From Escherichia coli (GTDB taxonomy: Bacteria; Pseudomonadota; Gammaproteobacteria; Enterobacterales; Enterobacteriaceae), in the NCBI RefSeq assembly GCF_002854065.1, contig NZ_CP024147.1: DNA of 64,000 nt; one strand, given 5' to 3'. Within the stretch, counting starts at the first letter, position 1; the number at the start of each line of letters is the position of its first letter. Shown here one piece after another: positions 22,975 to 25,484 of this stretch. The position numbers and the translations under genes were made by a program. The notes below the pieces were generated by a model. That model was not told the origin of the DNA and did no database searches. It saw nothing but the letters and a program-made list of their open reading frames with translations.

Positions 22975-23613
22975 TTACATGAAGAATGGCTTATCGCCAT
23001 CAGTCCCGGGTTGATTGATGCCTATATTCTCACCAATGTGTTTCTCAGGTTTATCGATGATATCTGTGATTAATGCGGCGACACTCTTACGCGATACGAT
23101 CGTACCTTTGAATAGTTCATTGCGTGAGGTAATCTCGTAATCAATAATATCTTCATCAGTCAGCCAGGCAGGGCGAAGAATTGTATAATCCAGTCCAGAA
23201 GCCTCAATTGCATCCGCAGCCCTGCGGAATGGTTTTAGGGGCTCACCAATAACTGCATTATTCCATTCGCCAAATTTTCCTGGAACTTCATCATAAATGC
23301 CGAGGGAAAGAACAAAGATCAGACGTTTAACATCACAGGCTTTCATCGCAGCGATCACTGAATTTGCCTGAATATCTAAATCTTCCCCCGTAAGGTTGGC
23401 ATACACAATATCCTGTCCCTGCATGGCCTGCTTCAGTGCTGCATGATTCAGTACATCCCCCATAATAATCTGGCTATTAGTTGGATAGGGTTTGTGTATT
23501 TTTGCTGGCTGACGAGCAAATAAAGTTTGTTTAATGGTTTGTTTATCTGCCAGTTGATTAATCACATGGCGGGCTATCTGACCGCCAGCACCAAGAATGA
23601 GTACATTTTTCAT
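22975..23613 (-). CDS. ymjC: NAD(P)-binding NmrA/SDR-like protein (ymjC-like, apparently full length here)
   Basis: ORF track 22975..23625; N-terminal Rossmann motif MKNVLILGAGGQIARH; K-12 ymjC at this position is a pseudogene as far as I recall. Confidence 0.7.
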   Translation of the reverse strand: MKNVLILGAGGQIARHVINQLADKQTIKQTLFARQPAKIHKPYPTNSQIIMGDVLNHAALKQAMQGQDIVYANLTGEDLDIQANSVIAAMKACDVKRLIFVLSLGIYDEVPGKFGEWNNAVIGEPLKPFRRAADAIEASGLDYTILRPAWLTDEDIIDYEITSRNELFKGTIVSRKSVAALITDIIDKPEKHIGENIGINQPGTDGDKPFFM

Positions 23614-23630
23614 AATATTTCTCATGAAAC

Positions 23631-24564
23631 TTATCCCAGATGGGTGTTGAGAAAAGGAATAACTTTTTCCAGCGCCTCCTGAACTGCTTCCGGTTTGTCA
23701 TACAGTTCATAATGTGAGAAATCGGGTAATGAAACTAACTGACGATCCTGCGAAACCATCGCCCGGCCATAGACTTCCAGTCCATCACGATAAGCACCGA
23801 AGGCACCGACTTTTTCACCAACTACTACCATCACCGGCTGAGTCAGTAACACTTCAGTAAATGCGAAGGCATCCCAGGCCAGCGTTTTCTGTGCATGTGA
23901 GAACAACATTTTTGTCGCACCTCCCGGTTGTTGCCCGCGTGGTGTTTTATAGTAGTCAGTTGCTTCATAAACATCGCGTTCGGTCAGTCCATGGGCTTTT
24001 GCTGCATCCAGGCTGGCGGGAAGTAATTCGTTGATCTGTAATTCTCCACCACGAGCCTCTTTGGTTCGTTGCGACGCCATTGCATTCAATGCGCCAATCG
24101 GATCGTAATTGCTGAAACCTTCCCGAAAAAGACGCCCGATATTAACACCCGTAATACTCACTACAGCTTTAATTCGTTTTTCTGTCAGCGCGGCATTAAT
24201 GGCATAGCCACCCCCCCCCACACACACCCAGCACGCCAATGCGTTCAGCATCAACATATGGCAGAGTTACTGCATAATCGATAACACGGCTAATATCCTC
24301 TACGCGCTGTGTCGGATCTTCTATCCAACGAGGCTCCCCACCAGATTCTCCCTGGAAACTGGCGTCATAAGCGAGAACGACATAGCCTTTTTCAGCCAAT
24401 GCCTTGCCATAGATATTGCCAGACGTCTGCTCCTTACAACTGCCAAAAGGATGGACGCTGATAATCGCCGGATACTGTTTTGACTCATCAAAATTTGGTG
24501 GAAACTGAATATTGGCAGCAATATGCCAGGCCATATCACTATTGCGGATTTGAATATGTTTCAT
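23631..24564 (-). pseudogene. Alpha/beta hydrolase paralog of ycjY, split into two overlapping ORFs by a frameshift in a 9-nt G/C homopolymer
   Basis: ORF 24196..24564 (N-terminal half) and ORF 23631..24257 (C-terminal half) align end to end with YcjY (e.g. YDASFQGESGGEPR vs YDASYQGESGGEPR); frames switch at the C9 run at 24211-24219. Confidence 0.65.
24211..24219. repeat. Homopolymer tract C9 (G9 on coding strand) at the frameshift point
   Basis: Read directly: gccaCCCCCCCCCacacacacc. Confidence 0.9.
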
Positions 24565-25484
24565 TACAGAGTTTCCTCAAAGAACGGAGCTAATACTGAA
24601 ATTGCTTCAGCCACATAGGCTTTGCCGTCATAAAGATCCATATGGTTTGCGCCTTCAACAATGTGATAGCGTTTATCCTGGCTTGATGCCCGATCGTACA
24701 GGTCGTCACTCATCCATTTGCTCCCTGCCTGGCTGCCCGCCACAATCTGCGTCGGCTGAGTCAGGTACACTTCCGCCATATGGTAAGCATCATAGGTAAT
24801 AATCTGGTTAAGGCTGCGCAAAGTAGCGTAACCCGGTGCTGTTGGATACTGCGCGCGAGGGGTGTGGTAATACTCCCAGGCCTGACGCAGTTCTTCGTTC
24901 GGCGCATCGGACTCCTTCATTGGTGCCAGTGGCATAATGGCGTATTCTCCGCTGCTAATATCGCTGGTTCTGGCGTTTGAACCCGCGTCAACGTATGGCA
25001 GGGCATCAATAGATTTCACATTGTTTTCCCAACCATTACGGAACATCGAACCAATATTGACCGCACTAACGGTACCGATGGCCTTGATGCGGCGATCCTG
25101 AATTGCAGCATTGGCTGTATATCCTGCACCGGCACAAATTCCCATCGCACCAATTCGGGTATTGTCGACATAAGAAAGCGTTGTCAGGTAATCAATCACG
25201 GCACTGACGTCTTCAGTACGAATGTATGGGTTTTCTAACTGACGCGGCTCGCCGCCACTTTCACCCTGATAAGATGCGTCATAAGCAATAGTGACAAATC
25301 CCTTTTCCGCCAGTTTTTCGGCATAGGTCCCGGCCGTTTGTTCTTTAACGCCCCCACCTGGGTGAGATACCACAATTGCCGGATGCTGACGGGTTTCATC
25401 AAATTTTGGAGGGAAATAGATCACTGCAGACAAAGAGATGGTTGGATTATTGCTGTTAGTGAAGCTGACTTTATTATTCATCAT
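24564..25484 (-). CDS. ycjY: Alpha/beta hydrolase YcjY (dienelactone hydrolase-like)
   Basis: ORF track 24564..25496; start trimmed to give 306 aa; nucleophile-elbow-like GICAGAG; synteny. Confidence 0.85.
   Translation of the reverse strand: MMNNKVSFTNSNNPTISLSAVIYFPPKFDETRQHPAIVVSHPGGGVKEQTAGTYAEKLAEKGFVTIAYDASYQGESGGEPRQLENPYIRTEDVSAVIDYLTTLSYVDNTRIGAMGICAGAGYTANAAIQDRRIKAIGTVSAVNIGSMFRNGWENNVKSIDALPYVDAGSNARTSDISSGEYAIMPLAPMKESDAPNEELRQAWEYYHTPRAQYPTAPGYATLRSLNQIITYDAYHMAEVYLTQPTQIVAGSQAGSKWMSDDLYDRASSQDKRYHIVEGANHMDLYDGKAYVAEAISVLAPFFEETL

Follow-up and report, generated by a model that had tools for sequence, protein, structure and literature searches.

Poly-G/C contingency genes of Campylobacter jejuni, Neisseria and Haemophilus contain a coding mononucleotide G run that sets the reading frame and occurs in many length alleles. 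These tracts are conserved in their genes, show high measured switching rates and control selectable surface traits. To our knowledge, Escherichia coli, a mismatch-repair-proficient species, is usually said to lack simple-repeat contingency loci. Length changes at short coding homopolymers have been described in clonal pathogens: homopolymer frameshifts in the 7C run of Mycobacterium tuberculosis glpK have a demonstrated reversible drug-tolerance phenotype (PMC10334774; bioRxiv 10.1101/717272), and the A8 run of espW in O157:H7 REPEXH01 was found only as A7, A8 and A9 (PMC12078548). Here, we analyzed a poly-G run in ymjD, an alpha/beta-hydrolase gene located in a 64,000-nt stretch of the E. 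coli contig NZ_CP024147.1 (assembly GCF_002854065.1), in the following referred to as the window. In the window, the run comprises nine bases (G9) and ymjD is frameshifted. We consider it likely, with a probability of about 80%, that this reflects ordinary gene decay, namely recurrent replication slippage at an accidental run of at least eight G (G8+) in a dispensable gene under relaxed selection. The ymjD run resembles the contingency genes in that a coding G run sets the frame and many length alleles exist, but the majority allele has no such tract, ymjD is a dispensable gene of cytoplasmic type, and there is no enrichment of in-frame lengths. The glpK and espW frameshifts are the closer analogues, sharing with ymjD changes of plus or minus one base at a short coding homopolymer that recur across isolates of a clonal pathogen; in ymjD, eight lengths occur, and they have no phenotype attached.

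The ymjD open reading frame (ORF) of the window is interrupted (122 + 208 aa) in comparison to the intact 310-aa genes of CUWW06, W2-5 and 0H26. The interruption maps to the mononucleotide run, which encodes the glycines of ..G-V-C-G-G-G-G-Y.. directly after the cysteine of a G-x-C-x-G elbow, and changing the run length removes the frameshift. When the run was edited in silico, G8 gave a product of 310 aa (reading ..RIGVLGVCGGGGYAINAALTEKRIK..) and G11 an in-frame product of 311 aa with one extra glycine; the products of G7, G9 and G10 were 125, 122 and 126 aa long, respectively. The run length at codons 116–119 sets the frame of ymjD, a feature shared with the simple repeats of phase-variable contingency loci. 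An initial annotation of the window, made from the sequence alone, had described tandem alpha/beta-hydrolase paralogs, one of them frameshifted at a 9-nt run in the glycine stretch of a G-x-C-G-G-G motif. We found this structure to be right, including the coordinates and frames of the split ORFs and of the run itself. The accompanying expectation that one extra or one missing base would restore a hydrolase of about 310 aa holds for one base fewer (G8) but fails for one base more (G10), which yields a 126-aa truncation.

On the plus strand, the run reads as C9 (24211–24219) and is the sole G/C homopolymer of at least eight bases in the window, the next longest being a G7. G and C runs of lengths 4, 5, 6 and 7 number 165, 21, 4 and 1, respectively, followed by this single run of 9. 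A model of independent and identically distributed bases predicts about 0.3 G/C runs of 9 nt per 64 kb, so that such a run is not very improbable. It is an outlier only relative to the window's own steeply falling run-length distribution, and its significance comes from its position and polymorphism, not from chance statistics.

We analyzed the run in 5426 complete E. coli genomes using queries of 89–92 nt centred on it and carrying G8, G9, G10 or G11. All four queries matched the same 1282 genomes. An interrupted run (GGGGGTGGTGG) is present in 68% of these gene-carrying genomes (875/1282; 90–95% identity band of the G11 query), and two of them checked at the DNA level (L003, L004) read TGTGGGGGTGGTGGC within an intact 310-aa gene. 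The run is contiguous in 397/1282 genomes, while 10/1282 gave only a partial match at 100% identity. Only one substitution separates the majority sequence, TGT GGG GGT GGT GGC, from the contiguous run: a T-to-G exchange at a third codon position (GGT to GGG, both Gly), which joins G5 and G2 into G8. With 875 genomes carrying the interrupted form, the run does not behave as a conserved, maintained repeat.

Within the contiguous class, several lengths coexist. Raw counts in the identity band of at least 99% were 80 for G8, 221 for G9, 83 for G10 and 16 for G11, each of them including the same 10 partial hits, which probably represent tracts split by the insertion sequence (IS) ISEc20; the correction is based on G11, where the band holds 16 hits but only 6 full-length rows. 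The corrected counts among the 397 genomes are about 70 for G8, 211 for G9, 73 for G10 and 6 for G11, at least 3 for G12 (93-nt spans) and at least 1 for G7, leaving at most about 33 without an assigned length. In-frame lengths account for about 76/397 (19%) of the complete genomes with a contiguous run, a share that takes no account of phylogeny. Among the genomes with G9 are Sakai, EDL933, EC4115, TW14359, Xuzhou21, the O55:H7 strain USDA5905 and the O145 strain RM9872; G10 was found, for example, in many O157:H7 strains and in O55:H7 DEC5D and TB182A, and G11 in O55:H7 CB9615. G8 occurs in O145:H28 RM13514 and RM12581, in part of the O157:H7 strains and in various strains other than enterohaemorrhagic E. 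coli (EHEC) such as CUWW06, and G7 was verified in one complete genome (L005). The Prokaryotic Genome Annotation Pipeline (PGAP) labels the G7, G9 and G10 alleles as 'frameshifted', and ECs_1907 of Sakai is annotated as a pseudogene. The EHEC allele (O157-type; L002, L011) carries L305F, and its last codon is replaced by a stop (G310*), giving in-frame products of 309 aa (G8) or 310 aa (G11). Because this allele ends one codon early, PGAP calls the G11 EHEC allele a normal-length gene of 933 nt.

For draft and Logan assemblies, we counted the index blocks of a 15-billion-protein collection which carry the exact product predicted for each length. G9 was the most frequent class (7392 blocks), followed by G10 (2604), G8 (1644, EHEC background only), G11 (1092), G12 (702), G7 (192) and G13 (87), and G6 was present in at least 20 contigs. 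The run length was confirmed in the DNA for each class from G6 to G13, and most of the carrying contigs are 10–200 kb long, corresponding to the size range of draft assemblies. The resulting distribution, likewise of counts that are not phylogenetically independent, is smooth and unimodal around G9–G10, with no 3-nt period. Selection on the reading frame would be expected to enrich in-frame lengths or to impose such a period; neither was seen, with 19% of the complete genomes in frame and a smooth, unimodal distribution in the drafts. Close relatives do differ in run length: G6–G13 occur in EHEC-type backgrounds, and both G8 and G9 among the near-identical relatives of the window.

Repeat sequencing of the same strain gave the same length in all four cases: the three records of strain 86-24, the EDL933 Z2444 product and CP008957, Sakai and its derivative 20R2R, and RM9872 and RM9872-C1, all of which carry G9. 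Apparent clone sets, recognized by name and near-identical chromosome size, also share their length (FRIK2455/2533/2069 with G9, cattle strains 113–140 with G10 and several pairs with G8). Similarly, the longest contig is 20–50 kb in 77 of the 87 G13 blocks, and two examples measure 31,282 and 31,283 nt, as one clone would give. This concordance argues against random error as the source of the length variation.

The G9 of the window itself recurs in independent data. A Logan assembly of SRR24724649 (L027) is 100.000% identical to positions 19631–28257 (8627 nt), G9 included; two further Logan assemblies (L025, L026) lie 2–3 single-nucleotide polymorphisms (SNPs) from the window and carry G9 as well, as does L028, which with 42 SNPs represents a third background. 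The 208-aa C-terminal ORF of the window type (L305 and G310, in contrast to F305 and a stop codon in the O157 type) is present in 30 index blocks. Thus, the window G9 is heritable and belongs to a lineage that has been sampled many times. The closest complete genomes carry G8: apart from the run, CUWW06 differs from the window by 1 SNP over 8.7 kb and strain 100416 by 6 SNPs over 20.7 kb. Compared with strain 100416, the run is the only indel across 20.7 kb, which shows that the window assembly is not indel-prone. Since the window represents a different background, on which G8 persists in the nearest complete genomes, its G9 arose recently and separately from the G9 of the O157:H7 clade. The O157:H7 counterpart, ECs_1907 of Sakai and Z2444 plus the downstream ORF of EDL933, is the same gene with a G9 run and a 122-aa product, and it matches the window without a difference over the 90 nt surrounding the run. 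However, the window differs from an O157-like genome by 63 SNPs in 8.7 kb and encodes L305 and G310 instead of F305 and a stop.

ymjD is also lost or broken in other ways. Some part of positions 22900–25600 is matched by 5242/5426 complete genomes, and 1280 contain at least 80% of it; the remaining ones are of the sequence type 131 (ST131) type, with ymjD deleted and ymjC intact, or of the K-12 type, with both genes damaged. The full-length hydrolase is therefore absent from about three quarters (~76%) of the complete E. coli genomes. K-12, whose ymjD and ymjC pseudogenes occupy the same locus between ycjY and mpaA, lost the genes through two deletions rather than a frameshift, whereas the window retains both at full length. 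One deletion (23614–24506 of the window) leaves a 21-codon ORF, MKHIQIRNSDMDWHIAANNLG*, in which the first 18 hydrolase codons are fused in frame to the last codons and which we take to be the ymjD of K-12. The other (22811–23474) leaves the first 138 nt of ymjC, a short-chain dehydrogenase/reductase (SDR) gene. The initial annotation had recognized an intact ymjC-like SDR gene at a place where K-12 has a pseudogene, and indeed this gene is complete in the window (22975–23613) while K-12 keeps only the 138-nt N-terminal piece. In strain 100416, which is 99.97% identical to the window, ymjD lies at L008:11632–12564 and has G8 but carries the nonsense mutation W230* together with T127I, and PGAP reports an 'internal stop'. 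W230* is an independent inactivation in the nearest relative of the window. Because the gene is missing from about three quarters of the complete genomes and is elsewhere inactivated by a premature stop codon or an inserted IS, we regard ymjD as dispensable.

The restored 310-aa protein aligns end to end with YcjY (PDB 5xb6, E 7e-68) and PA2218 (PDB 2hdw, E 3e-40) and is 42% identical to the adjacent YcjY. Its Pfam matches are Peptidase_S15 (1e-10), DLH (6e-08) and Abhydrolase_1 (3e-07); all NCBIfam matches lie far below their cut-offs, the best being the UilS lactonase with 76 bits against a cut-off of 400. In the elbow alignment, the cysteine of GVCGGGG (ymjD) is aligned with that of GICAGAG (YcjY) and GICGWGG (PA2218), and the GXCXG box of YcjY has been cited in a review (PMC3709699). 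A conserved histidine lies in the motif ..H-x-(D/E)-L-Y-D, which reads SHYELYD in ymjD and is aligned with NHMDLYD and SHVDLYD in the comparison with YcjY and PA2218. According to the elbow rule of alpha/beta hydrolases, Cys115 is the putative nucleophile. G9 cuts the protein two residues past Cys115 and removes the part with the conserved histidine, so that, judged by homology, the product is predicted to be inactive as an enzyme; losing the native sequence beyond residue 117 of 310 is decisive. G11 places its extra glycine inside the nucleophile elbow and may not be a true ON state.

ISEc20, an element of the IS110 family (1449 bp), was found inside the ymjD run of O55:H7 DEC5E (L015:2547–3997) and O145 RM12275-C1 (L016), the two genomes examined among the roughly 10/1282 with partial matches at the run. 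Both insertions have the same orientation and the same left junction, G6|TGCCCCTATTAAG (G6|TGCCCC..), and are followed by right-hand G runs of G6 and G3, respectively. At two other loci (L031–L034), an autotransporter gene of the ECSE_1600 type and an intergenic site common to ST131 and other strains, the element has G6–G7 at its left end and G5 at its right end. Flanking G runs at 3/3 insertion sites suggest that ISEc20 prefers poly-G targets, as far as occupied sites alone can tell; if so, the rare G9+ runs of E. coli would be hotspots for this element.

Slippage in a decaying gene is the simplest account of these results, because the run is not conserved, in-frame lengths are not favoured and the gene is otherwise knocked out (W230*, ISEc20, deletion). 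On this reading, the run is an accident and not an evolved device. A synonymous GGT-to-GGG exchange in one allele lineage fused G5 and G2 into G8. G8+ runs are prone to replication slippage, the mechanism which we infer here, and this lineage has since spread over G6–G13, with G9 becoming the commonest length. As ymjD is dispensable, the run length would drift without selection for the reading frame. In the window, the outcome is a real and heritable +1 frameshift, from G8 to G9, in a full-length ymjD of the PgrR-regulated cluster, with a G9 truncation that probably leaves the enzyme inactive by removing the part with the conserved histidine.

Several points weigh against this explanation. Replication slippage is deduced from the length pattern and was not observed. 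In EHEC, G8 and G11 are common (1644 + 1092 blocks), so that some benefit of the ON state is possible; the index block is a loosely defined unit whose counts can only be read relative to each other, and in-frame classes are undercounted in drafts, since a full-length product requires an exact match of 309–310 aa compared to about 120 aa for a truncated one. Consensus errors could account for part of the length differences seen among near-identical long-read genomes, as with G9 in O145 RM9872 versus G8 in RM9873-C1. In addition, one feature in a 'putative protein YcjY' was among the predictors of O157:H7 clinical outcome in a machine-learning study (PMC12711010). The supplements of that study contain no sequence of the YcjY feature and no poly-G string, and a link to the run in ymjD, which is often auto-annotated as YcjY, is unproven.

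One alternative is a true contingency locus, at which slipped-strand mispairing toggles the hydrolase between ON (G8, G11) and OFF (G7, G9, G10, G12) and thereby diversifies populations, especially of EHEC, for a selectable trait tied to the metabolism of peptidoglycan peptides. We regard it as unlikely. The polymorphism from G6 to G13, also between very close relatives, is what such a locus would produce, the run is located within the 5' third of the gene, a position it shares with the tracts of classical poly-G contingency genes, the in-frame lengths G8 and G11 are frequent in EHEC drafts, and the YcjY-annotated outcome predictor (PMC12711010) would fit as well. However, 875 of the 1282 genomes have a non-slippery, interrupted run, which marks the tract as a recent accident of one synonymous change. 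The in-frame share of about 19% and the lack of a 3-nt periodicity also speak against a switch, as do the absence of the gene from ~76% of the complete genomes, its inactivation by W230* and ISEc20, and the doubtful ON state of G11. Moreover, no phenotype is known, and the literature search, which was incomplete, turned up no paper on the tract. The initial annotation had offered a 'slippage-prone switch' as one of two explanations and proposed a comparison of tract length across isolates. This comparison revealed G6–G13 in public assemblies and G8 and G9 in near-identical relatives, which bears out the slippage-prone part; the selected switch is not borne out, given a run that is absent from the majority allele, in-frame lengths that are not enriched and a gene that is lost or broken in most E. 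coli. An adaptive phase switch is possible but unproven, and nothing in our data supports it positively.

An extension of this idea is a site with two modes, above all in the O157:H7/O55:H7/O145:H28 clade, at which slippage (G6–G13) and ISEc20 insertion, if reversible, would together toggle a PgrR-regulated hydrolase. Elements of the IS110 family are known to insert at specific sites and to excise precisely, and a change of run length via insertion and excision is therefore conceivable. If true, the resulting population heterogeneity would affect host interaction or disease outcome. We consider this combination more doubtful still than slippage switching by itself.

It is very improbable that the frameshift is compensated during expression, either by RNA-polymerase slippage or by +1 ribosomal frameshifting on the G run, which would make ymjD a recoded gene rather than a pseudogene. 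On a G run, tRNA-Gly could re-pair perfectly once the frame has shifted by +1. The cases of transcriptional slippage documented for E. coli, however, concern A/T runs. The correction would have to differ between G7, G9, G10, G12 and G13, while none is required for the majority allele; carriers do not share the fixed slippery sequence typical of programmed recoding but range from G6 to G13, with a majority allele that lacks the run. Because the length is not fixed and no frameshift stimulator was recognized on visual inspection of the sequence (no search for such an element was made), rescue by either type of slippage appears unlikely, although a low-level leakiness of the frameshifted ymjD may exist. 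For other genes of O157:H7, slippage of RNA polymerase on homopolymers has been suggested in the discussion of espW (PMC12078548).

The second explanation of the initial annotation, a homopolymer basecalling or assembly error in an isolate that truly has G8 and an intact gene, is refuted to the extent that we give it next to no credence: the errors that most commonly persist in long-read assemblies are those at G/C homopolymers, and the two closest complete genomes have G8, but G9 is reproduced by Logan assemblies of other sequencing runs on the identical 8.6-kb haplotype (SRR24724649, 0 differences) and on its close variants, the C-terminal ORF of the window type occurs in about 30 index blocks, and the assembly is not indel-prone in comparison to strain 100416.

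The G9 pseudogene as such is already annotated (ECs_1907, Z2444, PGAP). In the literature that we could cover, which is incomplete, ycjY, ymjC and ymjD appear in regulon tables, in a remark on the GXCXG box and in pan-genome associations, none of which concerns the run; Z2444, Z2443 and ECs1907/8 gave only unrelated matches, and a survey of homopolymers in Escherichia (PMC8928963) does not mention ymjD. We found no paper describing the run-length polymorphism, which at this incomplete coverage is absence of evidence only. Taken alone, the finding is a frameshifted dispensable gene, with no function or phenotype at stake on present evidence. It does provide a documented case in which one synonymous substitution led to a G8 run and then to eight length alleles over thousands of isolates, with the run arising or changing repeatedly on separate backgrounds. 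As the site is homoplastic and is read either as one intact or as two split ORFs, it may introduce noise into gene-by-gene typing, pan-genome and k-mer association analyses of EHEC. In addition, the ymjD run could serve as a natural system in which to measure poly-G slippage in wild E. coli and to study the preference that ISEc20 appears to have for poly-G.

The run is part of the ycjY-ymjD-ymjC-mpaA cluster on the minus strand, which lies downstream of the promoter region of the divergent pgrR, within the tyrR-tpx-ycjG-mpaA ... pgrR-mppA neighbourhood (Table 1). The ycjY stop overlaps the ymjD start (ATGA), ymjC begins 17 nt beyond ymjD, and mpaA follows after a further gap of 290 nt. The PgrR regulon includes ycjY-ymjDC-mpaA, printed there as 'ymfDC' (table in PMC5934670). 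A promoter and terminator scan of positions 22700–25700 returned fewer sites than shuffled sequence and gave no useful signal.

Table 1 Coordinates of the ycjY-ymjD-ymjC-mpaA cluster, the poly-G run and pgrR in the window.
Feature	Position	Strand	Remarks
ycjY, intact alpha/beta hydrolase (PDB 5xb6 family)	24564..25484	-	PGAP start; longest ORF 24564-25496
Full-length ymjD, frameshifted alpha/beta-hydrolase gene, ycjY paralog (42% identity)	23631..24564	-	310 aa if G8; PGAP 'frameshifted' for the same allele in other genomes
ymjD N-terminal fragment ORF, 122 aa, ending ..GVCGGGWLCH*	24196..24564	-	Identical to EDL933 Z2444
ymjD C-terminal fragment ORF, 208 aa, carrying the conserved His283 region	23631..24257	-	In frame with the 310-aa protein
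Poly-G run (coding strand G9, plus strand C9)	24211..24219	-	Gly116-Gly119 codons after the putative nucleophile Cys115; +1 frameshift site
Intact ymjC, NAD(P)-binding SDR / NmrA-like, 212 aa	22975..23613	-	PGAP start; Pfam NmrA / NAD_binding_10; longest ORF 22975-23625
mpaA, murein tripeptide amidase, last cluster gene	21956..22684	-	L001 coordinates + 19899
pgrR (ycjZ), divergent LysR regulator	25622..26521	+	ORF and annotation

Upstream of the ymjC start, the window (23614–23640) reads TTTCATGAGAAATATTATGAAAAATG compared to TTTCATGAAAAATG in K-12 and ST131. This 12-nt difference creates an alternative upstream ATG, giving an SDR ORF of 216 aa versus 212 aa, and gene callers disagree on the start. 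Between pgrR and mppA (~26619–26693), PGAP annotates a 75-nt pseudogene fragment of 'epoxyqueuosine reductase QueH' in related genomes, which is either an odd relic or a spurious call. An IS1 copy (InsA/InsB ORFs) adjoins ogt at 32748–33512. At this position, strain 100416 instead has 5.8 kb comprising AbgT and LysR fragments, an AraC regulator, an HlyD/DHA2 efflux pair, smrA and part of dgcM, and the window appears to carry an IS1-associated deletion near ogt.

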